Shown in pieces: positions 5,213 to 61,420 of a stretch of 64,000 nt of DNA (positions are counted from its first letter, which is position 1; each line of letters begins with the position of its first letter). Made by a program: the position numbers and the translations under genes. This DNA is from Mobula hypostoma. Its lineage: Eukaryota. Where the stretch lies: the NCBI RefSeq assembly GCF_963921235.1, contig NC_086108.1, positions 80,416,001-80,480,000 on the forward strand, read 5' to 3'. The notes beneath the pieces are model-generated. The model made no database searches, was not told where the DNA came from, and saw nothing but the letters and a program-made list of their open reading frames with translations.

Positions 5213-6381
5213 TTGGGGACTGTAAAAGAAACAAGAAACACAATATTGATGTTAAGGATACTATCAGAACAAGCTATTCAAGTGCAAAAAGATTCGTTTG
5301 TTTATTTTATCGACTACACAAAAGCATTTGATAAAGTGAAGCACAATAAGTTATTTGAAATATTACAGAAAACTCTAGATCTAGATTCACAAGACCTCCA
5401 CCTAATCTGTACTGGGAACAAACTGTCGTTGTAAGAATAGATGGAGAAGTGAGTCAGTTTATGAAAATCAAGAGAGGCGTTAGACAAGGGTGTGCTTTCT
5501 CCCCTGATTTATTTAATATATACAGTGAAACAATATTAAAAAAAATAAGAGACATCTTGGGAATCAAAGTTGGCGGTGAGAACATCAATAATTTCAGATA
5601 TGCAGATGACACTGTGTAAATTGCAAGTACGGAGGAAGAACTACAAAACTTAATTGATGTAATTGCTGAAGAAAGTGCAAAAATGGGCCTATCTATCAAT
5701 GGCAAAAAGACAGAATGTATGGTGATATCCAAAAAGAAGGAGAATCCTATCTGCAGGCTGAGAATAAATGGGGAAGACATAAAACAAGTACAGAACTTTT
5801 GTTACTTAAGAAGCTAGTTGACATCAGATGGCAGGTGCGACTTGGACATCAAAAGAAGAATAACGATGGCAAAAGACACCTTTACGAGAATGAAGAGTAT
5901 ACTGACCAATACTAAACTAGGCATCACAACCCGCCTCAAAGTACTGAAATGTTACGTTTATCCGGTTATGTTATATGGCTCAGAATGTTGGACAATATCT
6001 AGTAACATGAGGAAACGAATTGTAGCAGCAGAGATGTGGTTTTTGAGGAGGATGCAAAGAATATCATGGACGAAACGAATATCTAACGAGGATGGCATGA
6101 ACAGAGCAAACACAAAAAGAGAAATAATGTATGAGATCGTGAAAAGGCAACGTAACTTCATTGGACATGTGATTAGGAAAGAGGAGTTAGAATGCATGGT
6201 AATTAAGGGAAAGATTGAAGGGAAGAAAGCAAGAGGAGGACAAAGACAAATGATGATGGAGACAGCAGCCAGAGAACTGGAAATGAATACCAATGAATTG
6301 ATCCACTTGACCTGAAACAGGAGTGTGTGGGCCATGGCAGTCAAAGCTCAAACTGGGCCTGGTGCCTGATGATGATGATGA
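5213..6381 (+). mobile_element. RTE-clade LINE, degraded RT and C-terminus
   Basis: FIDYTKAFDKV, RGVRQGCAFSPDLFNIY, GGENINNFRYADDT and YGSECWT motifs split over frameshifts; (GAT)n tail at about 6368-6381. Confidence 0.93.
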
Positions 6382-8986: not shown

Positions 8987-9022
8987 AGTCGACGTTTCAG
9001 GCCGAGACCCTTCGTCAGGACT
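8987..9022 (-). ncRNA. Minimal type-I hammerhead ribozyme motif (PLE-associated)
   Basis: Minus strand: AGTC-CTGACGA-A-GGGTCTCGGCCT-GAAAC-GTC-GACT; stem I AGTC/GACT, core CUGANGA/GAAA, GUC cleavage triplet. Confidence 0.8.
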
Positions 9023-9087
9023 AACTGAAGGAAGAGTGAGTAGGGGATTTGAAGCTTTAAAATCCCTTACTCACTCTTCCTTCAGTT

Positions 9088-9123
9088 AGTCCTGACGAAG
9101 GGTCTCGGCCAGAAACGTCGACT
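9088..9123 (+). ncRNA. Minimal type-I hammerhead ribozyme motif (PLE-associated)
   Basis: AGTC-CTGACGA-A-GGGTCTCGGCCA-GAAAC-GTC-GACT; basal pair of stem II mismatched (G/A). Confidence 0.75.
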
Positions 9124-9552
9124 GCGCCTCTTCCTATAGATGCTGCTTGGCCTGCTGCGTTCACCAGCAACTTTGATGTATGCTGCAAATATGCTGCTTG
9201 AGTTGCTGAGTATATCCAGTAACTTTTTATTTTTATTTATATTTCCAGCATCTGCAGATTTTTTTTCTTTTCAAAGTAATAGAGAGGCAATATTAGAATT
9301 TGGATCCCCTGCCACTGATGTTGGTATTTAAATAATTTTTGAAAAGAGACACTTCAAAAGGTATGGAACATGACCAACTGACAGGTTGATGTTAAAAAGC
9401 CCTACGGAACTGATGGAATAGCAAACCCCTTTCTGTGCTGTATCATATGACTTTATGAGAAGGATTATCAAATCAGTGTCCTGTCCGGAGCTTGAAAATT
9501 GATGTCATAAAGGGAACAAATTCATCTGTTTGATGTGCTGATTAGGGTGTAT

Positions 9553-9735
9553 GGGGTGTCCAGGGAGGGGGAGTACCTCTGGTGAAATAGCCTGTCATGT
9601 CCATTCTGGGACAGCTCACTCCCTTTGGGTTCTACCGGGCACTCAACTCTCACCTGTGGCTCCAAGTAGCAGTTTGCACATGACAGCAGTCACACCCTGA
9701 TCAACCGTTTTGGCAGACGGGCTAAACCAGGTGAG
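9553..9735 (+). ncRNA. HDV-like self-cleaving ribozyme fold
   Basis: P1 GGGGTGT 9553-9559 / ACACCCT 9692-9698 (G-U first pair); P2 CTCACCTG 9649-9656 / CAGGTGAG 9728-9735; P3 GGC/GTC; L3 starts TCCAAG; P4 CCGTTT/AGACGG; J4/2 GCTAAAC. Confidence 0.7.
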
Positions 9736-10030
9736 GATAGCCAAGGGGCCTCATACCCCAGTGAAATAGGAAATGCCTGTCCTAGCAGGTGAAGTCGGCT
9801 CTGGCGGACTGGGCGGATGAGATCAACAGTTAGATCCAACACTGAGAAGGCAGTTCTGCAACACTTCGTGGAGATTCAAGGGCATGACAAGGCACAGAAG
9901 AAGTCATGGTCATCCACTGCAACCAAAGGAGATTCCAGTTTGTGACAACTACTCATACCACTGGACTCAGAGATCAAGAGAATGGAACTGCCCTAGTGCG
10001 ATGGCTTTTCCACTTCAAACACTCCCCCGC
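9553..10030 (+). mobile_element. Interspersed repeat, probable RTE-type 5' UTR or non-autonomous derivative
   Basis: GC-rich non-coding block in AT-rich DNA that begins with an HDV-like ribozyme fold; such ribozymes are known at RTE 5' ends. Confidence 0.55.
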
Positions 10031-11286
10031 ACAAGTCTCCTGCCATCATCCAGGGTACGATGGATGTGCTGATCATTACACGTTGGTCTATAACACAACA
10101 TTCCCTGAAGTGCACAATTCAAATTTAGTTTTCCATTTAGAAGAAATGACCGCTTACTCACTCCCCTATCCTTTGCTTTGTTATCGAGCAGCTGATAGTA
10201 AATAAAATTGCAGCTTCCAGATGCAACAAAAAAATGATCAATTGTTAACTCAAGAAAATACAGCACATTACACCTATTTTTGCAGTGTTTATGTGTAACT
10301 TACTCACAGATATACAGTACCACTGGCTGAAATTGCTCTTTCTCCAGTGAATAGTCTGATTAAATATTAAAGTTGAAAAACAATGCTCAATTTCCCTTTT
10401 TGTTTTAGTTTTGGAGAGGTTCCTCCATTTCACTTTTACTCTGAATCAGAAATATAATTTAATGAGGATCATGACTTAAACACCAGCTGTCAGATCTTCC
10501 CAGTCCTGTTCGAGAAACAGGGATTGAGATAATGGATTGTTGCATGGCGACTCCCCCTCTGACAACACACAACCCCCAATTACTGGCATCCAGTCAATGG
10601 AATTCCACAGTACGCTGGAACTGAAATTGGCACGTTGCTAAGAGAGTCAGAAGAGAGAAAATGGGAACAACCATTCTATATAGTATCACGAGCAATATTA
10701 AACACACTGAGCAGCAGCACTACGTTCATAAACAGTGACCCAATTTAAACATTCTCTGGCAAAATCCCAGTTGATTTATCTAAAATAGGTAGATTTACCT
10801 AGCGCAGGTCATTTTAAATAAACTGTTGCATTGTTACCTTATTCTGCTCAGATTGATACATTCCAGTGTCTTGATGATTAATCGCAGAGAGAGGCAGTTC
10901 AATAAGACCTGAATTTATAAAGCAAAATAATATTTGCATATATTAATCACTAAAATCCAGATACAATTCATTACAACCCAGGCAACCAATGTAAAACAAT
11001 GTCACCTAAAGATAAATCCTGCTTTGATAATTGGATCTTAACAATGGGGTACATGAACTGCAAGGTACAAATTTTATTCCATATAAGGGCACTTCCACAT
11101 ATGCTAAAAGTAAATGGCAAAAGTCTTTTTCGGTATATCTGCCCATCCAGATTACCACACTAACATTAATGAATCTACAAAAAGTTAGAAAATCAAATAA
11201 ATCAGTAACAATCCCTGCAATTGTAGCAAGGTAAACAACCTCAGACACTCTTCTTTTAAAAAGAAAAATAATGCATATATGCTGCA

Positions 11287-11379
11287 CTCACAACACACTG
11301 GAGGAACTCAGCAGGTCGGGCAGCATCCGTGGAAACGATGAGTCGACGTTTCGGGCCGGAACCCTTCGTCAGGACTGGG
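11287..11379 (-). mobile_element. Short Penelope-like terminal fragment with TSD
   Basis: CTGGAGGAACTCAGCAGGTCGGGCAGCATC motif; flanked by ATATATGCTGCA (11275-11286) and ATACATGCTGCA (11380-11391). Confidence 0.85.
11341..11376 (-). ncRNA. Minimal type-I hammerhead ribozyme motif
   Basis: Minus strand: AGTC-CTGACGA-A-GGGTTCCGGCCC-GAAAC-GTC-GACT; all stems intact. Confidence 0.82.
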
Positions 11380-32012: not shown

Positions 32013-32345
32013 TTTTCCCCTTTCTTTCTCCCTCTGTCCCTCTCACTATATCTTCCTCTGGTGCTCCCCTCCCCCTTTCTTTCTCCCTAGGCCTCTCGTC
32101 CCATGATCCTCTCCCTTCTCCAGCCTGGTATCCCTTTTGCCAATCAACTTTCCAGCTCTTAGCTTCATCCCTTCCCCTCCTGTCTTCTCCTATCATTTCG
32201 GATCTCTCCCTCCCCCTCCTACTTTCAAATCCCTTACTATCTCTTCTTTCAGTTAGTCCTGATGAAGGGTCTTGGCCCGAAACGTCGACTGTACCTCTTC
32301 TTGTGGATGCTGCCTGGCCTGCTGCGTTCACCAGCATTTTGTTTG
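31710..32345 (+). mobile_element. Penelope-like element 3' part: GIY-YIG endonuclease C-terminus (31710-31952), CT-rich UTR, hammerhead-bearing terminus
   Basis: TQRRLGDHFAEHLCSV..PVATHFNSTSHS..LRLEEQHLIFRLGSLQPDGMN fits the PLE GIY-YIG pattern (T.R.L..R..EH, HF...H, E...I..L....P.G.N); includes (TTTA)n at about 31983-32013. Confidence 0.9.
32255..32290 (+). ncRNA. Minimal type-I hammerhead ribozyme motif
   Basis: AGTC-CTGATGA-A-GGGTCTTGGCCC-GAAAC-GTC-GACT, on the same strand as the GIY-YIG ORF. Confidence 0.85.
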
Positions 32346-38704: not shown

Positions 38705-41457
38705 TCCTGCTTGAGTACTGTTGGGGGAGATGGCTTACCTAGGGGAAGCCACAGTTTGGTTCCCACCCCCCAGCAATTCTAGTTTAAACTCTCCTCAATA
38801 GCCTCAGCAAACCTCCCCGCCAGGATATTGCTCCCCTTGAGATTCAAGTGCACAGAGTCTGGCCCTGTAGCTCAGAAGGGTAGGTAAAGGAAGAGGATGG
38901 CAGCAGTGAAAAAGAACTCTATAGTTAGGGGGTCAGAAAGGCAATTCTGTGGATGCAGGAAAGAAACACACATGGTAGCTTGCCTCCCAGTTGCCAGGGT
39001 CTGGGAAGTTTCTGATCACGTCCACGATATCCTGTAGTGGGAAGGAGAACAGCCAGAGGTTGTGGTACATATTGGTACCAATGACATAAGTAGGAAAAGA
39101 GAGGAGGTCCTGAAAACAGACTACAGGGAGTTAGGAAGGAAGTTGAGAAGCAGGACCTCAAAGGTAGTAATCTCGGGATTACTGCCTGTACCACGTGACA
39201 GTGTGTATAGGAATAGAATGAGGTGGAGGATAAATGAGTGGTTGAGGGATTGGAGCAGGGGCAGGGATTCAGATTTCTGGATCATTAGGACCTCTTTTGG
39301 GGCAGATGTGACCTGTACAAAAAGGACGGGTTGCACTTGAATCCCAGGGGATCAATATCTTGGCGAGGAGGTTTGCTAAGGCTATTGGGGAGAGTTTAAA
39401 CTCGAATTGCTGGGGGGTGGGAACTGAACTGAAGAGACGGAGGAAGAGGCAGTTAGCTCACAAATAGAGAAAGCTTGGAGACAGACAATAGACAATAGGT
39501 GCAGGAGTAGGCCATTCGGCCCTTAGAGCCAGCACCGCCATTCACTGTGATCATGGCAGATCATCCACAATCAGTACCCAGTTCCTGCCTTATTCCCATA
39601 ACCTTTGATTCTGCTATCTTTAAGAGCTCTATCCATCTCTTTCTTGAAAGCATCCAGAAACTTGGCCTCCACAGCCTTTTGGGACAGAGCATTCCATATA
39701 TCCACCACTCTCTGGGTGAAAAAGTTTTTCCTCAACTCCATTCTAAATGGCCTACCCCTTATTCTTAAACTGTGGCCTCTGGTTCTGGACTCACCCATCA
39801 GTGGGAACATGCTTCCTGCCTCCAGCGTGTCCAATCCCTTAATAATCTTATATGTTTCAATAAGATCCCCTCTCATCCTTCTAAATTCCAGTGTATACAA
39901 GCCCAGTCGCTCCAATCGTTCAACATATGACAGTCCCGCCATCCCGGGAATTAACCTTGTGAACCTACGCTGCACTCCCTCAATAGCAAGAATGTCCTTC
40001 CTCAAATTTGGAGACCAAAACTGCACACAATACTCTAGGTGTGGTCTCACCAGGGCCCTGTACAGCTGCAGACAGTGCGAGAGGGAGGATAGGCAGATGA
40101 TAGAGAAGGGAAGCGCTCAGACCGATGGTTTGAGATTTGTCTTATTTAATGCAAGGAGTATTATGAATAAAGCAGATGAGCTTAGAGTATGGATCAGTAC
40201 TTGGAGCTATGATGTTGTGGCCATTACAGAGACTTGGATGGCTCAAAGGCAGGAATGATTACTATGAGTTCCAGGCTTTAGATGTTTCAGAAAGGACAGG
40301 GAGGGAGGATAAAGAGGTGGGGCATGGAACTGTTGATCAGGGATAGTGTCACGACTGCAGAGAAGGAGGAAGTCATGGAAGGATTGTCTACAGAGTCTCT
40401 GTGGGTGGAAGTCAGAAACAGGAAGGGGTCAATAACTCTACTAGGTGTTCTTTATAGACCACCCAATAGTAACAGGGACATCGAAGAGCAGATAGGGAGA
40501 CAGATTCTGGAAAGGCGTACTAATAACAGGGTTGTCATATTGGGAGATTTTAATTTCCCAAATATCGATTGGCATCTCCCTAGAGCGAGCGGTTTAGATG
40601 GGGTGGAGTTTGTTAGGTGTGTTCGGGAAGGTTTCTTGACACAACATGTAGATAAGCCTACAAGAGGAGAGGCTGTACTTGATCTGGTATTGGGAAATGA
40701 ACCTGGTCAGGTGTCAGTTCTCTCAGTGGGAGAGAATTTTGGAGATAATGATCACAATTCTATCTCCTTTACCATAGCATTGGAGAGGGATAGGAACAGA
40801 CAAATTAGGAAAGTATTTAATTGGAGTGAGGGGAAACATGAGGCTATCAGGCAGGAACTTAGAAACATAAATTGGGAACAGATATTTTCAGGGAAATATA
40901 CAGAAGAAATGTGGCAAATGTTCAGGGGATATTTGCGTGGAGTTCTGCATAGGTATGTTCCAATGAGACAGGGAAAGGATGGTAGGGTACAGGAACTGTG
41001 GTGTACAAAGGCTGTTGTAAATCTAGTCAAGAAGAAAAGAAAAGTTTATGAAAGGTTCAAAAAAACTAAGTAATGATAGAGTTCTAGAAGGTTATAAGGC
41101 TAGCAGGAAGGAGCTTAAGAATGAAATTAGGAGAGCCAAAAGGGGCCATGAGAAGGCTTTGGCGGACAGGATTAAGGAAACCCCCAAGGCATTCTACAAG
41201 TATGTGAAGAGCAAGAGGATAAGACGTCGGAGAATAGGGGATCAAGCAAGTGTGACAGTGGAAAAGTGTGTATGGAACCGGAGGAGACAGCAGAGGTACT
41301 TAATGAATACTTTGCTTCAGTATTCACTACGGAAAAGGATCTTGGCGATTGTAGGGATGACTTACAGCGGACTGAAAAGCTCGAGCATGTGGATATTAAG
41401 AAAGAGGATGTGCTGGAGGTTTTGGAAAGCATCAAGTTGGATAAGTCACTGGGACTG
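38705..41457 (+). mobile_element. CR1 with degraded SGNH-esterase ORF1 and ORF2 endonuclease, interrupted by another CR1
   Basis: VVHIGTNDI..VISGLLPVP (ORF1); LFNARSIMNKADEL, VAITETW, YRPPNS, GDFNFPNIDW, LDLVL (endonuclease). Confidence 0.93.
39485..40069 (-). mobile_element. Young 5'-truncated CR1 nested in an older CR1
   Basis: Intact 159-aa C-terminal ORF (39571-40050); TSD AGACAG at 39479-39484 and 40070-40075. Confidence 0.95.
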
Positions 41458-44969: not shown

Positions 44970-45163
44970 ACACAAGGAATTCTGCAGATGCTGGAAATTG
45001 AAGCAATACACATCGAAGTTGCTGGTGAACGCAGCAGGCCAGAGATTACTAGCTCTTCCTTCAGTTAGTCCTGATGAAGGGTCTCGGCCTGAAACGTCGA
45101 CTGTACCTCTTCCTAGAGATGCTGCCTGGCCTGCTGCGTTCACCAGCAACTTTGATGTGTGTC
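44970..45163. mobile_element. Penelope-like mini-insertion with inverted arm and 12-bp TSD
   Basis: TSD ACCCACATGCAT at 44958-44969 and 45164-45175; arms at about 45008-45042 and 45126-45159 are reverse complements. Confidence 0.9.
45067..45102 (+). ncRNA. Minimal type-I hammerhead ribozyme motif
   Basis: AGTC-CTGATGA-A-GGGTCTCGGCCT-GAAAC-GTC-GACT. Confidence 0.8.
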
Positions 45164-48912: not shown

Positions 48913-49065
48913 AGCACACACAAAATGGTGGTGGAATGCAGCAGGCCAGGCAGCATCTATAGGAAGAAGTACAGTCGACGTTTCGGGTCGAGGTCCTTCG
49001 TCAGAACTAATGGAAAAAAGAGACAGTAAGAGATTTGAAAGTGGGAGGGGGAGGGGGAGGGGGAG
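48913..49065 (-). mobile_element. Penelope-like terminal fragment with TSD
   Basis: 10-bp TSD AAAATTGTGC at 48903-48912 and 49066-49075; homologous to 32205-32345. Confidence 0.88.
48973..49008 (-). ncRNA. Minimal hammerhead ribozyme motif with weakened stem II
   Basis: Minus strand: AGTT-CTGACGA-A-GGACCTCGACCC-GAAAC-GTC-GACT. Confidence 0.65.
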
Positions 49066-49424: not shown

Positions 49425-52400
49425 CCATGCAAACAACATCAGCAAGACCAAAGAATTCATTGTGAACTTCAGGAAGGGAAAGTTGAGGGAAGACATACCA
49501 GTCCTCATCGAGGGGCCAGAATGGAAAGGGTGAGTAGTGTCAACATCCTGGCTGTCAACATCTCTGAAAATCCATCCTGGGCTCAACATATTGCTGGAAT
49601 TATGAAGAAATCATGTCAGCAGCTACATTTCATGAGGAGTTTGAGGAAATTTGATATGCAATCAAATATGTACAGATTTCCACCATTTTAACTGGTGCAC
49701 CACTGCCCAATATGGAGGGATCACTGCACAGGATCGGGAAAAGCTGCAAGGGGTTGCAAACTCAGCCAGCTCATCATGGGCACTAGACAGCCCAGCACTG
49801 AGGACATCGTCAAAACGCGATGCTTCAATAAGGAGTAATCCGTTATTGCATGTCACTGGGAGCTGAACGTCCAAGGATACACGGTGTATCGGACGGATAG
49901 GAAGGTAGGCAGAGGGGGAGGCATGGCTTTATTGGTAAGAAATGATATTAAATCATTAGAAAGAGGTGATATAGGATCGGAAGGTGCAGAATCTTTATGG
50001 GTTGAGCTAAGGAATAGCAGGGGTAAAAGGACCCTGATGGCAGTTATTTATAGGCCTCCAAACAGCTGCAGGGATGTGGACTACAAATTACAACTGGAAA
50101 TAGAAAAGGCTTGTCAGAAGGGCAGTGTTATGATAATTGTGGGGGATTTTAACATGTGAGTAGATTGGAAAAATCAGGTCGGCACTGGATCTCAAGAGAG
50201 AGAATTTGTAGAATGTCTGCGAGATGGCTTTTTAGAACAGCTTGTTGTTGAGCCCACTAGGGGATCGGCTGTACTGGATTGAGTATTGTGTAATGAACCG
50301 GAGGTGATTGGAGAGATTGAGGTGAAGGAACCCTTAGGAGACAGTGATCATAACATGATTGAGTTCACTGTGAAATTAGAAAAAGAGAAGCCGAAATCTG
50401 ATGTGTCGGTGTTTCAGTGGAGTAAAGGAAACTACAGTGGCATGAGAAAGGAACTGGCCAAAGTTGACTGGAAAGGGACACTGGCGGGAAAGACAGCAGA
50501 GCAGCAGTGGCTGGAGTTTATGCGAGAAATGAGGAATGTGCAAGACAGGTATATTCCAAAAAGGAAGAAATTTTTGAGTGGAAAAAGGATGCAACCATGG
50601 TTGACAAGAGAAGTCAAAGCCAAAGTTAAAGCAAAGGAGAGGGCATACAAGGAAGCAAAAATTAGTGGGAAGACAGAGGATTGGGAAGTTTTTAAAACCT
50701 TACAAAAGGGAACCAAGAAGGTCATTAAGAGAGAAAAGATTAACTATGAAAGGAAACTAGCAAATAATATCAAAGAGGATACTAAAAGCTTTTTCAAGTA
50801 TATAAAGAGTAAAAGACAGGTGAGAGTAGATATAGGACCGATAGAAAATGATACTGGAGAAATTGTAATGAGAGATGAGGAGATGGCAGAGGAACTGAAC
50901 AAGTATTTTGCATCAGTCTTCACTGAGGAAGACAGCAGGATACCGGACACTCAAGGGTGGCAGGGAAGAGAAGTGTGCGCAGTCACAATTACGACAGAGA
51001 AAGTACTCAGGAAGCTGAATAGGCTAAAGGTCGATAAATCTCCTGGACCAGATGGAATGCACCCTCGTGATCTAAAAGAAGTAGGTGTGGAGATTGCGGA
51101 GGCATTAGTGATGATCTTTCAAAAGTCGATAGATTCTGGCATGGTTCCGAAAGACTGGAAGATTGCAAATGTCATTCCGCTATTTAAGAAGGGGGCAAGG
51201 AAGCAAAAAGGAAATCATAGACCTGTTAGCTTGACGTCGGTGGTTGGGAAGTTGTTGGAGTCGATTGTCAAGGATGAGGTTACAGAGTACCTGGAGGCAT
51301 ATGACAAGATAGGCAGAACTCAGCATGGATTCCTTAAAGGAAAATCCTGCCTGACAAACCTATTACAATTTTTTGAGGAAATTACCAGTAGGCTAGACAA
51401 GGGAGATGCAGTGGATGTTGTATATTTGGATTTTCAGAAGGCCTTTGACAAGGTGCCACACATGAGGCTACTTAACAAGATAAGAGCCCATGGAATTACA
51501 GGAAAGTTACATACGTGGATAGAGCGTTGGCTGATTGGCAGGAAACAGAGAGTGGGAATAAAGGGATCCTATTCTGGTTGGCTGCCGGTTACCAGTGGTG
51601 TTCCACAGGGATCAGTGTTGGGGCCGCTTCTTTTTACATTGTACATCAACGATTTGGATTATGGAATAGATGGCTTTGTGGCTAAGTTTGCTGATGATAC
51701 GAAGATAGGTGAAGGGGCCAGTAGTGCTGAGGAAACGTAGAGTCTGCAAAGAGAATTGGATAGATTGGAAGAATGGGCAGAGAAGTGGCAAATGAAGTAC
51801 AATGTTGGAAAGTGTATGGTTATGCACTTTGGCAGAAAAAGTAAACGGGCAGACTATTATTTAAATGGGGAAAGAATTCAAAGTTCTGAGATGCAACGGG
51901 ACTTGGGAGTCCTCGTGCAGGATACCCTTAAGGTTAACCTCCAGGTTGAGTTGGTGGTGAAGAAGGCGAATGCAATGTTGGCATTCATTTCTAGAGGAAT
52001 AGAGTATAGGAGCAGGGATGTGATGTTGAGGCTCTATAAGGTGCTGGTGAGACCACACTTGGAGTACTGTGGGCAGTTTTGGTCTCCTTATTTAAGAAAG
52101 GATGTGCTGATGTTGGAGAGGGTACAGAGAAGATTCACTAGAATGATTCCGGGAATGAGAGGGTTAACATATGAGGAACGTTATCCATTCAGAAATCTGA
52201 TGGTGGAGGGAAGTATGTGGCTTCAGGCTCCAGTACTTCCTCTCTGATGGTGGTAACGAGAAGAGAGTTTAGAAGAATGAGGGGAGACCTCATAGAAACA
52301 TTCCGAATGTTAAAAGGCATGGATAGAGTGGATGTGGCAAAGTTGTTTCCCATGATGGGGGAGTCTAGCACGAGAAGGCATGACTTCAGGATTGAAGGGC

Positions 52401-54859: not shown

Positions 54860-56770
54860 TGATCAGCACTGCTGAATCAGAGGTTACTAACCAAATCCTC
54901 CAGAGACCTGTGAGAGAAGACATGGGGAAAACTCCCAGTATGACAGAGTCCATGGGGCCACCAGGAGCCTGAAATGCAAAAAAGCCACTGGTCCTGAAGA
55001 GATCCCAAAAGAGATCCTCAAGGAAGCTAGACCAGCACTCCTGCACTAAGAGATCCCAAAAGAGATCCTCAAGGAAGCTAGACCAGCACTCCTGCACTAA
55101 GAGATCCCAAAAGAGATCCTCAAGGAAGCTAGACCAGCACTCCTGCACTAAGAGATCCCAAAAGAGATCCTCAAGGAAGCTAGACCAGCACTCCTGCATT
55201 ATATACATGCCTTCCTCCTGAAGGTCGGGGAAAAAGAACAACTGCCCTCGGAGCTCACGGATGCTCTAATTGTGACCATATTCAAGAAAGGAGACAGGGC
55301 ACACTGTGGCAATTTCAGAGGCAAGCCCCTCCTGTCAACAACAGGAAGGAGCATGCATGTATCCTTGTCTACCTTCTTCTGCTATCTGAAGAATCTGAAG
55401 AAGTACTCTCTAATTTATGTGTGGTTTCTGCTTATCTAGAGGTACAACAGAAATTATCGTCACCGCACACAAATTACAGGAAAAATGCCGTGAACAAAGG
55501 CAACGCTTGTACTTAGCTTTCATAGAATTGACAAAGGCATTTGATACAGTAGACATGGATGTCCTGACAAGTACTTACGAATACTGAGAATACAGCATGA
55601 CGGCATGTAAGCCACAGTACTCAGCAATAGTGGTGCTGAATTAGAACCCTTCACTGTCAAGGCATGAGTCAAATAGAGTTGCATCATTGCATCCATCCTA
55701 TTTGCCATCATTATTGCTGTCATCCTTTATCCCACTGGCCAAGACCTGCCACAGGGAATCCCAATCGTGTATAGAATGGACAGCAGGCTTTTCAGCTTCA
55801 ACTAGTTCAAGGCCAAGAACCACTACTATCATAAAGCTTCCGTATGCGGAAGACAACACCATCTCAGCACACTCCGAAGATCTCCAATGTTTTCTAAGTG
55901 CCTTTGCTGATGCATATGGAGCCCTGGATCTTGTTTTGAATATAAAAAAGACACTTCCTATATCGGCCACTGCCCAACCAGCCATTTGTCCAGCCCTCCA
56001 TAAAAGAGGACTTGAAAGTGCTCTTGAAAATATAGATTACTTTCCCTACCTTGGGAGCATTCTCTCCTCAAAAGACGACATTGACTCAGAGATCAACTAC
56101 TGCCTCAGTAGTGCTAGTGGAACCTATTCAAGATTAAGAAAAAGAGTCTTTGAAGATTACAACCAACAGTTCCAAGCAAAGCTTTTGGTCTATAGAGCAA
56201 TTGTTCTTCCTTATTACTATATGGAGCAGAATCTTTGACCAGAATGATGGACCATCTGAAAGACCTGGAAAGTACCACCAAAGGACCTCATGAAAGATTT
56301 TGAGGATCAGCTGGAGGGACAGACACACTAACACCAATCTACTGGAGGAGGCCAACATGGAATGCATTTCCACCATGATAAAGCAACACCAACTCCAATG
56401 GATAGGTCATGCTTAACACACCTCCCCAAACTAATCTTTTACTCCCAGTGAGTCCCTGGTGGGCAAAGGAAATGCTTCAATGATAACATCCAAATCAGCC
56501 TGAAGAAATTCAACACTACATCTAAAAGCTGGGAAGACATTGCACTCAATAGATCCACCTGGAGGAAATCTGTTCAAGAGGGAGCTGCATTACAAAACAG
56601 CGACCTCTGCTGTGCCACAGAGAACAAGCGGCAGCTGCTAAAGGAGAGAATGAACAACCAAAAGAGCCAACCACTAACCACAGGCATCACTTACTCGTGC
56701 CCACACTGCACCAGAACATGTGCATCCTGGATTGGCCTCTACAGCCACCTGCGGACCCACCAATCGACAA
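54860..56770 (+). mobile_element. Degraded RTE-clade LINE ORF
   Basis: IVTIFKKGDRAHCGNFRG, AFIELTKAFDTV, LPYAEDN, FPYLGSILS and C-terminal C2H2 finger CPHCTRTCASWIGLYSHLRTH. Confidence 0.9.
54997..55198. repeat. Perfect 51-bp tandem repeat, about 4 copies, inside the RTE
   Basis: Unit AAGAGATCCCAAAAGAGATCCTCAAGGAAGCTAGACCAGCACTCCTGCACT starting at 54997, 55048, 55099 and 55150. Confidence 0.97.
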
Positions 56771-56860: not shown

Positions 56861-59800
56861 TCTTAGGAGAACATCTCACTCAACTTGAATGATCGCAAGA
56901 TGATACTCGATACTTCCTTTTAATTAAGCAGTCAGATTTGCCTGGTCCACACCAGTTCAGGTGCAAGATGTTGGCCGAGGACACCCGCCCGCATGGGGGT
57001 ATCTGCATGGGTGAAGGACTGAACTGGGAGCAAGAGGATTTCCATCAATTTATTTTCCTGTGCAGGTCATTTCTGAATGGAGCTTATTGGGGATGTATGG
57101 TGGTAACGTAAGTTACTGCTCTGACAAGGAGAGCCCATCTTCCTATTGCTCACCATCTTTTTCCTCCTCCTCAGTTACTTTTTAATCATCCCGCCACCTC
57201 AAATCCTCACCTCCGTGCAGTGTGCTGAAGCAGTTTTACTCTAAAAGACTTAAGGGTTCAGCTACTGAAAATAATGAAAATACCATGGAAAGAGAGAGAG
57301 AGAGAGAAAAGATAAAAAAAATTGCTCATGAAATGCTGATAGAGGACCGGAATGCAAGGAGGTAGAAGTTACATTGCAGTTATATATAGTCTTTGATAGG
57401 CATTGGAGCATCAGTTAGGACGGGCTCAGGGGGTCATTGCTTCCAAATCCTCATCCAGTGATGGCAGCTGAAAAGGTTCAGTGCAGAATCGAACTCATCT
57501 ATTATTTCCCTCTACAGTACCTTAATGCTAAAGAATAAGAGAACACGCTGTCCTTCTGCAATTGCAGCATCTTCATGTTTATATCTTGTTTAATATAAAA
57601 TGATAATCGATTGGAAAGAAAAAATGGAAGATTTTGAGAATTATGAACTTATAGGGCAGTGTTGCCTTGGCAAAGAAAGCTTTCTTTGAGTTCACCATCT
57701 CCTAACGTGAAGGAACAATGACAGTTGTTCATGAGATTCTCATCGCTAATCATACCTGACACTATCAATTTATTATATTAATTTAGCAAGAATACTATAA
57801 CACCAGCACATCTGCTGCAAAACAATGGGAAGAAAACCAGCTCAGTGAACTGCAGCTCCAGCAAAAAAAGAAGCTTGCTTATCACCGATTCATTGCACCT
57901 GCCACCCAATGGGTTCTACACACAGATACATTCACAGGCAGGCCACAGAAAGAATACTGTACCAGCACAAAACTAATTTATGTGCAATTTTATGTGGATA
58001 AGCCTAAATGGCATCTCAAGTTGTTACTGAATGAGGGATTTTCAACAGAACAATCACAGCTTCAGTCCATTGATTGAAAAGCTACACAATAAATATTTCA
58101 ACAGTATTTATGAGTTGAATAGTCTTGTTAATTAAATTAAAACAGGTAGCTGATCTTCACCTGGTCTTCCCACTGAATGATTAAACCAGTTGAACTTAAC
58201 CTTGAAAACAGAAAAAAAACAAGTTAAATGTATTTCAAGGGAAATTGCAGTTTGCTTTATTGTTCTTTACAATGTGGCAGCTAAGAACTAATGAGTTCTT
58301 CATGAAATCCACAACAAAATGAGAGAACTTAATTGCTAATTTGAGACCCATCTCAATCTTATGGGTGGTGATTATTGGAGCCATGTGTGAGATATAATTA
58401 AGGCAGCTTCACAGTCGTTCTATTTATGAGCAACAGTCACAGCAAAACAAATTTTGCACCGATTGTCTCATTTACTGCGGGCAGGCAGTTAGAACGTAAG
58501 AAGATAGGAGCAAGAATAGGCCACCTGGCTCCCCAATCCTGCCCCTCCACACAGTATGATAACGATTGATCTGTTGCAGATCAATCTGAGGATATTACAG
58601 CTGCCATCTGCTGTCATGGATCAATCTGTAAGCTGTTTTAGACTATTCAGCTGACCTCTTCCATTTGATCATTTATTACTGCAGAGTGAAATTCTATTGG
58701 TTTTGTAGAGGGCTGCATTTAATCCATTTGGTATCCCAGGTATTCTTGATGCTAAGGGCTTGAGGATGAGGAATTACAATTGGGATAGAAGCACTTGAAC
58801 TATGGCAACCAAGAAACCATGAATCAGAAAACTCGAATTTATCTCTTTCAGTGTTGACAATGCATCAAAGAGCTAGTTATAGCTTCAGCAAGACCAGATG
58901 AGTGGCTACACTACACCAAATTGACATCAGTTAAAATGGTAGTACCCAATATGGAAACATTGATTTGTCTTGGTGAAAATTCATGGTGTAAATGGAGGTT
59001 CCACTTCATCAAGAAGTTTTGCTTACTGTGTCAGGGGTACATGATGTAGTTTAAATGGCTGTTGTGTGTTCTTCATGCCAGATGTCAGAGTTCTGGGAGA
59101 CCTAGAGACCCCCAAGGAACTACATCTGTGTGGACTGCATCCAGTTGAAGCTCCTTGAAATCTCTGTTAGGGATCTGGAGCAGCAGCTGGTTGACTTTCG
59201 GCTTGTACAGGAGAGTGAGGAGATCATCGATCGGAGTCACAGGGAAGTAGTCACCCCTAAGTTGCAGGCGGTGGGTAGCTGGGTGACTGTCAGGAGAAGA
59301 AATGGGAAGGTGAATAGGCAGGCAGCACAGAGCGTCCCTGTGGCCATTCCTCTCAATAATGAGAATATTGTGTTGGATACTGTTGTGGGGGATGACCTCC
59401 CAGGGGAATGGCATGGAGACCAGGTTACAGGCATCGAGCATGGGTCTGTGGTGCAGAAGGGAAAGAGAGAGAAGAAGGGAGCAGTAGTCACAGGGGACTC
59501 AATAGTCAGGGGAACAGACAAGAAATTCTATGGACATGTATGGGACGATCAGATGGTATGTGGCCTCCCAGGTGCCAGGGTCAGGGATGTCTCAGATCGC
59601 ATCAACAATGTTTTAGAGAGGGAGGGGAAGCAGCCAGATGACTTGGTACATATTGGTACCAATGACATAGGAAGGAAAAGCAAAGAGGTCCTGAAGAGAG
59701 AATTTAGAGAGACAGGCAGAAGACTGAGAAGCAGGACCACCAGGGTAGTAATTTCTGGATTGCTGCCTGTGCCACACACCAGTGAGGGTAGAAACAGGAT

Positions 59801-61420
59801 GATTTGGCAGATAAACGCATGGCTGAGAAGCTGGTGCATGGGGCAGGGCTTCAGGTTCTTGGATCATTGGGATATCTGCTGGGGGAGGTATGACATGTTC
59901 AAAAGGGACGGGTTACACCTGAACCCGAGGGGGACCAATATTCTCATGAGCAGTTTGTTAGAACTGTTGGAGAGGGTTTAAACTAATTTGGCAGGGGGAT
60001 GTGAACTGGAGTGAAGGGACCTAGGGACAGGATGGATAGTTAAAGAAACAGTCAGACTGTCAGGAAGATGCTAGGACAAAATCGCAGCCAGCAGGGTGAG
60101 TGAGAGTGCATTAGGCATGCAGAATCAAAAAGGGTAGCAAATTCAGTACTCAATGCACAATAAGAAATAAGGTGGATGATCTTGTTGAACTTTGTTACAG
60201 ATTGTCAGGTATGATGTTGTGGCCATCACTGAATTGTGTCTGAAGAATGGTTGCGGTTGGCAGCTGAATGTCTAAGGCTACACATTGTATTGGAAGGATA
60301 GAGATGTAGGCAGAGGGGGTGGTGTGGCTCTGCTGGTAAAGAATAGTATCAAATCATTAGAAAGATGTGACATAGGATCAGAAGATGCTGAATCCTTGTG
60401 GGCTGAGTTAAGAAAATACAAGGGTAAAAGGACCCTGATGGCAGTTATATACATACAGGCTCCAAGCAGTAGCTGGGATGTGGACTACAGATTACAACGG
60501 GAAATAGAAAAGGCGTGTCAAGAGGGCAATGCTATGATAATCGTGGAAGATTTTAACGTGCAGGCTAGCAAAAGTTTTTTCAAGTGTATAAAAAATTAAA
60601 AAAAATAAAAGAAATGAGAGTGGATAGAGGATTGCTAGAAAATGATGCCAGAGAAATAATAATGGGGGACAAGAAGATGGCAGATGAACTAAATGAGTGT
60701 TTTGCATTAGTCTTTACTCTGGAAAACACTAGCAGTGTGCCAGATGTTGACGTTGAAGGCTATGAGGAAAGAGAAGTGAGTACAGTTACAATTACAAGGG
60801 AGAAGGTGCTCAAAAAACTGAAAGGGTACATAAGTCACCCTGGATCAGATGAACTGCACTGTAGAGCTCTGAAAGAGGTAGCAGTAGAGATTGTGGAGGC
60901 ATTAGTAATGATCTTTTCAGAATCATTGAACTCCAGGCATGGCTCTGGAAGACTGGAAAATTGCAAATGTCACTACATTCTTTAAAAAAGGAGGGATGCA
61001 GCAGAAAGAAAATTATAGACCAGTTAACTTGACCTTAGTGGTTGGGAAGATGTTGGAGTCAATTGTTAAGGATGAGGTTATGGAGTACTTGGTGACACAG
61101 GACAAAATAGGACAAAATCAGCATGGTTTCCTTAAGGTAGTGTTGAGGAAACAGGAAGGCTGCAGAAGGACTTAGACAGATTAGGACAAAGGCCAAGAAA
61201 GTGTCGAATGAAAATACAGTGTTGGAAAATGCACTTTCGTAGAAGAAACAAATGTGCAGAATGGGGAGAAAATGGGGAGAAAATACAAAAATCTGAGATG
61301 CAGTGGGACTTGGGCATCCTTCTGCAGAACGCTCTAAAGTTTAACTTGTGGTTAATTTGGTGGTGAGGAAGGAAAATGCAATATTAGCATTCATTTCATG
61401 AGATCTGGAATACAAAAGCA

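Follow-up and report, generated by a model that had tools for sequence, protein, structure and literature searches.

The window, i.e. the whole stretch of 64,000 nucleotides of Mobula hypostoma DNA analysed here, contains at positions 9544-10062 (forward strand) a decayed copy of an ORF-less retroelement of about 540 nt, with a target-site duplication (TSD) on both sides (Table 1). The majority sequence of the family comprises 539 nt, has no long ORF and ends with a short CAC repeat; the window copy differs from it by 76 substitutions over 517 aligned positions. In 30 fetched copies, the common sequence runs from about 9 nt upstream of position 9553 to about 530 nt downstream. First-look searches of the 3.48-Gb genome returned 3976 and 4344 candidates (40 of the 3976 were scored), i.e. 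thousands of copies, and exact matches to the core numbered 3001, against 0 for the control. The element family is not confined to the Mobula hypostoma genome. Homologous heads are carried by two metagenome contigs, L375 and L357, and words of the element also occur in sequencing runs of nine organisms.

The TSD of the window copy scores 11, to be compared with a maximum of 9 among 247 mismatched pairs. Ten of 62 full copies reach a score of at least 9 (null maximum 8, n = 247); in the other 52, no TSD above the null was found. When copies are selected by their tail, the 5′ truncation points are scattered and the 3′ end is fixed and bears a microsatellite. Scattered 5′ truncation is expected from target-primed reverse transcription. 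Thus, the TSD, the variable 5′ truncation and the fixed 3′ end with its microsatellite indicate insertion by this route. A tRNA-derived SINE was considered and rejected: no tRNA head is seen in five out of five loci (0 tRNA genes by ARAGORN, which a decayed head could escape) and the head of the element matches the 5′ end of a LINE from base 1. Folding of the last 62 nt of the majority sequence brings the tail into pairing with the end of the 5′ part (-9.9 kcal/mol, with no control). At five loci (L008, L013, L015, L027, L028), a slightly 5′-shortened copy lies inside another repeat and has been multiplied along with it; L101-L103 are also embedded in that repeat, as judged by their 3′ flank. 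The common flanks of the five loci resemble what we take to be a pogo/Tigger-type element.

Table 1. Features of the element copy and of its borders in the window
Feature	Positions	Strand	Remarks
Whole non-autonomous retroelement copy	9544..10062	+	From alignment to the family majority
Left target-site duplication	9532..9544	+	11-nt exact core 9532-9542; 12/13 match to 9544
Outer GGGGTGT-like arm, likely true P1 5′ strand	9544..9550	+	Predicted cut 9543/9544; G1 is A here
Inner GGGGTGT arm (9553-9559)	9553..9561	+	P1 in the preliminary description; more likely 5′ arm of P1.2
Structured J1/2 domain	9554..9644	+	Closed by P1.2 (9554-9561 with 9637-9644), predicted
P2 5′ strand	9649..9657	+	8 bp (9649-9656/9728-9735) plus U9657-A9726 beyond bulged C
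P3 and L3	9658..9691	+	P3 9658-9660/9689-9691; L3 9661-9688, 28 nt
Extra L3 hairpin	9669..9687	+	5-bp stem, one mismatch in the window copy
P1 3′ strand (ACACCCT, 9692-9698) and P1.1 3′ strand (9699-9700)	9692..9700	+	P1.1 strand GA here, GG in the family
P4	9705..9720	+	6 bp (9705-9710/9715-9720), tetraloop
J4/2, then P2 3′ strand	9721..9738	+	Catalytic-C position 9722
Remaining LINE-derived 5′ UTR	9739..10039	+	Majority positions 1-3 to ~505 match upstream of LINE ORFs
LINE-derived 3′ tail	10040..10062	+	~30 nt in the family; here lacking the microsatellite end
Right target-site duplication	10063..10075	+	Pairs with 9532-9544

A ribozyme-like fold at the head of the element

The first 195 nt or so of the element contain all the helices of an HDV-like double pseudoknot, in nested order. 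The preliminary description had placed such a fold at the head of an RTE-related repeat; the link with a LINE, the position at the 5′ end and the pairing all agree with this, and each structural element that it listed is found in place. The equivalents of U20, C21, C22 and G25 in L3 are positions 9661, 9662, 9663 and 9666, and P2 reaches 11 bp in the family majority. J4/2 reads CUAA in the family, as in antigenomic HDV. P1.1 is an intact CC/GG in all family majorities; one of its pairs is lost in the window copy. In the accessible text of the papers that set out HDV-like ribozyme criteria, G1 is paired with a pyrimidine at the cut and P1 has 6-7 bp (PMC6326823, PMC8495972), and the descriptor given in the accessible part of one of them has CRRA as J4/2 (PMC6326823). 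The pair at G1 is G-C in the family majorities and A-U in the outer register of the window copy.

A descriptor of our own (P1 of 7 bp, P2 of 7 bp, P3, U-C-C-N-N-G, L3 of at most 35 nt, P4 and C-N-R-A) finds a single core in the window, with two P1 registers (9544 and 9553), and only when P1.1 is relaxed. Neither 12 dinucleotide-shuffled versions of the 64-kb strand nor 300 shuffles of each family majority sequence gave a match to it, and there were 0 matches outside the family in 2.28 Mb of scanned loci. The Rfam ribozyme models did not match the window (E up to 10) or four loci (E up to 1).

The same head is found in at least five related families, A (that of the window), B, C, E and F. When pairing is compared across copies, as had been proposed, all HDV-like helices are kept, and both P4 and the L3 hairpin show compensatory changes. 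For 34 chosen copies, 92.8% of 1587 cells are paired (93.1% for P1.2), against 41-50% for slid controls. Changes on both sides affect 24 cells, a number as high in 0 of 500 shuffles, and the covarying pairs number 7, which 82 of the 500 shuffles also reach. These covarying changes reflect few events inherited by many rows. The second pair of P4 goes from C-G to G-C (11 rows) and the fourth from C-G to U-A (4 rows), the two sides of the latter co-occurring within family A (4/76, Fisher p 0.002). The outer pair of the L3 hairpin goes from G-C to A-U in family B (4 rows), and family E keeps the hairpin stem with a shorter and different loop. P2, P3 and P1.1 show no both-side change in the 34 copies; they are invariant. 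Covariation in P1 rests on one sequence, L375.

Conservation is uneven along the head. The five family majorities diverge by 0% in J4/2 and the P2 3′ strand, by 23% in J1/2 and by 24% in P4. Within family A, U20 is kept in 76/76 copies, G25 in 71/76, and the catalytic C and the last A of J4/2 in 69/76 each; the C24 equivalent is A in families A, B and E and C in families C and F. In family C, P1 is topped by a C-A mismatch. Under nested folding, where the pseudoknot lies outside the model, P1 has a probability near zero in the unconstrained ensemble, and RNAalifold (also nested) predicts P3 lengthened to 6 bp at the expense of P1 and P2.

L3 is the part in which the head departs from expectation. 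It spans 26-28 nt and includes a hairpin in the families, whereas a canonical HDV-like L3 has 7-8 nt; insertions are tolerated near the U27 position of the HDV fold. That the hairpin is a family trait, as had been proposed, is borne out by the genome counts, 3001 for the long-L3 pattern versus 20 for the short one (controls 0), and by its presence in L375. A hairpin-less sister family was sought among the 20 short matches, which are heterogeneous deletions with no family among them. In family F, L3 starts with UCCCCG, closer to HDV. Family F (L306-L334) and loci L308, L313, L321 and L327 combine the same ribozyme head with different bodies and tails. A helix in L3 of HDV-like ribozymes was not found in the accessible text of PMC6765202, PMC4035085, PMC8495972, PMC4870747, PMC6326823, PMC10879173, PMC7761336, PMC3774820, PMC5786205 and PMC4908430; figures or supplements may well contain an earlier description.

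The window copy itself carries several changes: G1 to A, C9698 to T (of the CpG type), G9700 to A, one mismatch in the L3 hairpin and one wobble in P3. The G-U wobble at the cleavage site and the CC/GA in P1.1 noted previously are indeed present, because of the changes at 9698 and 9700, respectively. However, they are the decay of one copy, and most family copies have C and GG: in family A, 49/76 copies have C at the 9698 equivalent, and 50/76 and 62/76 have G at the two P1.1 positions. The suspicion that this copy is impaired is strengthened, with a P1.1 pair broken, G1 lost and the hairpin mismatched; judging from these changes, the window copy is probably slow or dead as a ribozyme. All nine core bases checked are kept in 23 of the 76 family A heads. 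Family F, whose copies are 97% identical to their own majority (n = 11), is a better test object than the window copy.

P1 register, predicted cleavage site and alternative explanations

Cleavage had been placed at 9552/9553. The copies start about 9 nt further upstream, at the first GGGGTGT-like arm. Extension of the copies well upstream of 9553 had been named as an argument against the ribozyme reading; an extension of 9 nt is found, and it moves the site while the reading is kept. J1/2, previously taken as about 90 nt, measures about 98 nt in the outer register and is structured. Nine of the ten copies with a clear TSD start between -4 and +2 of the outer arm and one starts at the inner arm. 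Of the tail-selected copies, 57 gave a match, and in 26 of these it extends into the first 11 nt. With P1 forced, folding favors the outer register by 9.9 kcal/mol in family A, 6.8 in B, 3.1 in C, 8.1 in E and 10.4 in F; the margin is 1.7 kcal/mol for three decayed LINE copies and 6.1 kcal/mol for the window copy. The reason is that the inner arm is then free to close J1/2. A pattern scan of metagenomes gave, among the at least 119 loci listed, two homologs of the head; the remaining 117 have no similarity to the head and were taken as chance. One homolog, L375, combines the head and the L3 hairpin with a stop-free piece of RTE-like ORF (58% over 253 residues). A G-C pair of its P1 is changed to U-A. 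No other 7-mer near the L375 head that would pair at six or more positions was found. Finally, in contigs of another organism, the likeness ends at the first G (121 and 88 loose ends at L009:1502/1503). From the copy starts, the folding energies, the pairing in L375 and the contig break, the cut site most likely lies at 9543/9544 rather than at 9552/9553; the inner arm may be used occasionally.

Alternatively, the ribozyme might be the same but cleave at the equivalent of 9553, or at each of the two sites, with the outer 9 nt as a passive duplication of the sort modelled for R2 (PMC3774820). In all five families, the P1 3′ strand can pair equally well with either arm, and in family C the two arms share a change of U7 to C. 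Moreover, among 55 near-full copies (a set partly selected by the head, from which seven composite copies were left out), ten match at most four of the first 9 nt, and the TSD of L019 abuts the inner arm. Nevertheless, an inner cut would delete the outer arm from the progeny, whereas 44 of the 55 copies keep at least six of these 9 nt; of the 26 tail-selected copies that extend into the first 11 nt, 17 begin no later than position 3; and the P1 3′ strand of L375 pairs by seven out of seven Watson-Crick pairs with the outer arm only. Overall, an inner or double cut has a small probability.

A former ribozyme crippled by the L3 insertion, with a fold kept as a promoter, a translation start or a site for RT binding, is a different proposition. 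It draws on the facts that L3 belongs to the active site and that competing pairings are predicted; in addition, a young and abundant RTE family spreads with no descriptor match (0/30 loci), so that a ribozyme is not obligatory. It is quite improbable in view of the catalytic C, J4/2, U20, C21, C22, G25 and GG, which are unchanged in the five families and in L375 while J1/2 and P4 drift, and of the coincidence of the 5′ ends with the predicted cut. As for chance pairing in a G+C-rich repeat, G-rich and C-rich runs do pair easily and Rfam returns no match. Still, the descriptor gives 0 matches in shuffles and outside the family, compensatory changes are seen and the fold sits at the exact 5′ end of the element; this explanation is already largely refuted and can practically be dismissed.

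The partner LINE

A pattern built on the tail of the element gave 468 genome matches (control 0), of which 30 loci were taken. At two of them, the upstream sequence is a different one and corresponds to the end of an RT ORF. On the 3′ side, the overlap of this LINE with the element is limited to the last 30 nt or so. At the other end, full-length LINE copies match the element with 71-82% identity from its positions 1-3 to about position 505, and an element-like 5′ UTR is found about 340-390 nt before the APE ORF at many loci. The LINE has a single ORF with APE and RT, and a short 3′ UTR. In the proteins closest to it (identity up to 52-57%), one ORF of about 1050 residues combines RT and endonuclease domains; we take the LINE to be an RTE from its motifs and domain layout rather than from a tree with named references. 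The ESM Atlas returned only generic RT clusters, and a pattern for the LINE continuation built from L114 matched L114 alone. Judging from these alignments, the element is a bipartite non-autonomous LINE, since it consists of a 5′ part and a 3′ part with the ORF deleted: the 5′ UTR and the roughly 30-nt 3′ tail of an RTE-like LINE from the same genome. Ribozyme-headed derivatives of this kind appear to have arisen more than once.

Part of the UTR is also found in a much younger RTE-like family of the same genome (L255-L284; 6143 candidates, about 95% alike, ORFs longer than 1000 residues), the heads of which are GC-rich, variable and devoid of this ribozyme. This family was considered as a carrier of the same ribozyme and rejected on the descriptor result given above. 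The head thus looks exchangeable. Some LINE copies have an inverted 5′ portion (L212, which is L196, L214, L233 and L165/L171); in two such cases, the start corresponds to the first bases of the ribozyme. Fragments of other LINEs in the window (50283-52160, 55155-56760, 5225-6186, 6-1025, 40282-41073, 59106-59981) include sequences for RT (Pfam RVT_1) and for APE endonuclease as well as a GDSL-esterase ORF, the last being typical for some ORF1 proteins.

Relation to known systems

Ruminski et al. reportedly described HDV-like ribozymes at the 5′ ends of non-LTR retrotransposons in 2011. In the accessible text of later papers, such ribozymes head RTE, R2, R4, Ingi/L1Tc and baggins elements (PMC6765202, PMC3774820, PMC5786205, PMC7761336). 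The present head shares with them, as far as these texts go, the position at the first base, the double-pseudoknot topology, the core bases and the presumed release from a co-transcript. It differs by a 26-28-nt L3 with a hairpin and by a tandem P1 arm reused in P1.2, and cleavage is here a prediction. The closest likeness for J1/2 is drz-Agam-2-1, as presented in the accessible part of its description: a large J1/2 closed by P1.2, short linkers and an extended P2, of 12 bp against the 11 bp predicted for the element (PMC4908430). The layout of the element (2-3-nt linker, P1.2, 1-nt linker, 11-bp P2) fits the pinch described for that ribozyme. However, that text mentions no L3 hairpin, and activity was measured there and is predicted here (PMC4908430). 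With P1.2 domains already described, the long J1/2 is not the departure that it had first seemed.

R2 ribozymes with a duplicated P1 likewise combine a long J1/2 with two P1 candidates in tandem, and a shift of the cut site by the duplicated P1 has been modelled for R2; according to the accessible text, the duplicate is there the 28S target (PMC3774820), whereas in the present case it belongs to the element itself and is predicted to find its partner within J1/2. Bipartite non-autonomous elements are a known class for RTE, a clade with reported 5′ ribozymes; Bov-A, RTE-N2_Lch and RTESINE2, in the part of the source available, likewise retain nothing of a LINE but its 5′ part and its extreme 3′ end, with no ORF and no tRNA head (PMC5786205). 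The element family may already be named in Repbase. Hence, in the accessible literature, the link between ribozymes and RTE, the bipartite RTE elements and the long J1/2 are already known, and the unusual feature is the L3 hairpin.

The window also holds a repeat with six copies (8988-9018, 11342-11372 and 48974-49004 on the minus strand; 9092-9122, 32259-32289 and 45071-45101 on the plus strand), the core of which resembles a minimal type I hammerhead (CUGANGA, stem II, GAAA and a palindromic ACGU; chance expectation 0). Two copies lie head to head and form an inverted repeat at 9005-9105; sub-threshold Rfam miRNA matches there correspond to this inverted repeat and are unrelated to the element. 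Minimal type I hammerheads are reported for Penelope-like elements in the accessible text of PMC7761336.

Proposed model and implications

The locus is very probably the decayed 5′ end of a bipartite retroelement, the active ancestor of which is predicted to have carried an HDV-like ribozyme cutting at the 9543/9544 equivalent. In the model that we propose, the element would be read through from host promoters. P1 would form from the outer GGGGUGU arm and the inner arm would close J1/2 via P1.2, the P1.2 domain pinching P1 against the extended P2. The extra hairpin would emerge near the U27 position, at the 3′ end of L3, and point outward, while U20, C21, C22 and G25 would stay placed. C9722 would then act as the general acid in an HDV-type cleavage at the outer G, freeing the element RNA, and this RNA would be copied in trans by the RT of the LINE through its 3′ tail.

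The biology is expected, ribozymes at the 5′ ends of RTE and two-ended RTE parasites being already known. It is tempting to go further and to see in these heads an active HDV-like subclass, with a selected L3 helix and a duplicated P1 arm closing J1/2, that heads animal RTE families and is invisible to current models. We put this forward tentatively, as a proposal that may well be right and to which we do not yet lean. If it is true, L3 would be a third insertion site of the HDV fold, descriptor searches would undercount HDV-like ribozymes and many genomic ones would have been missed. The thousands of copies and the near-intact young relatives offer the means of testing the L3 helix cheaply. 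L3, which makes up the active site, is regarded as a short and fixed loop. An active hairpin variant would therefore widen the rules of the fold, and it would offer a new site for engineered insertions.
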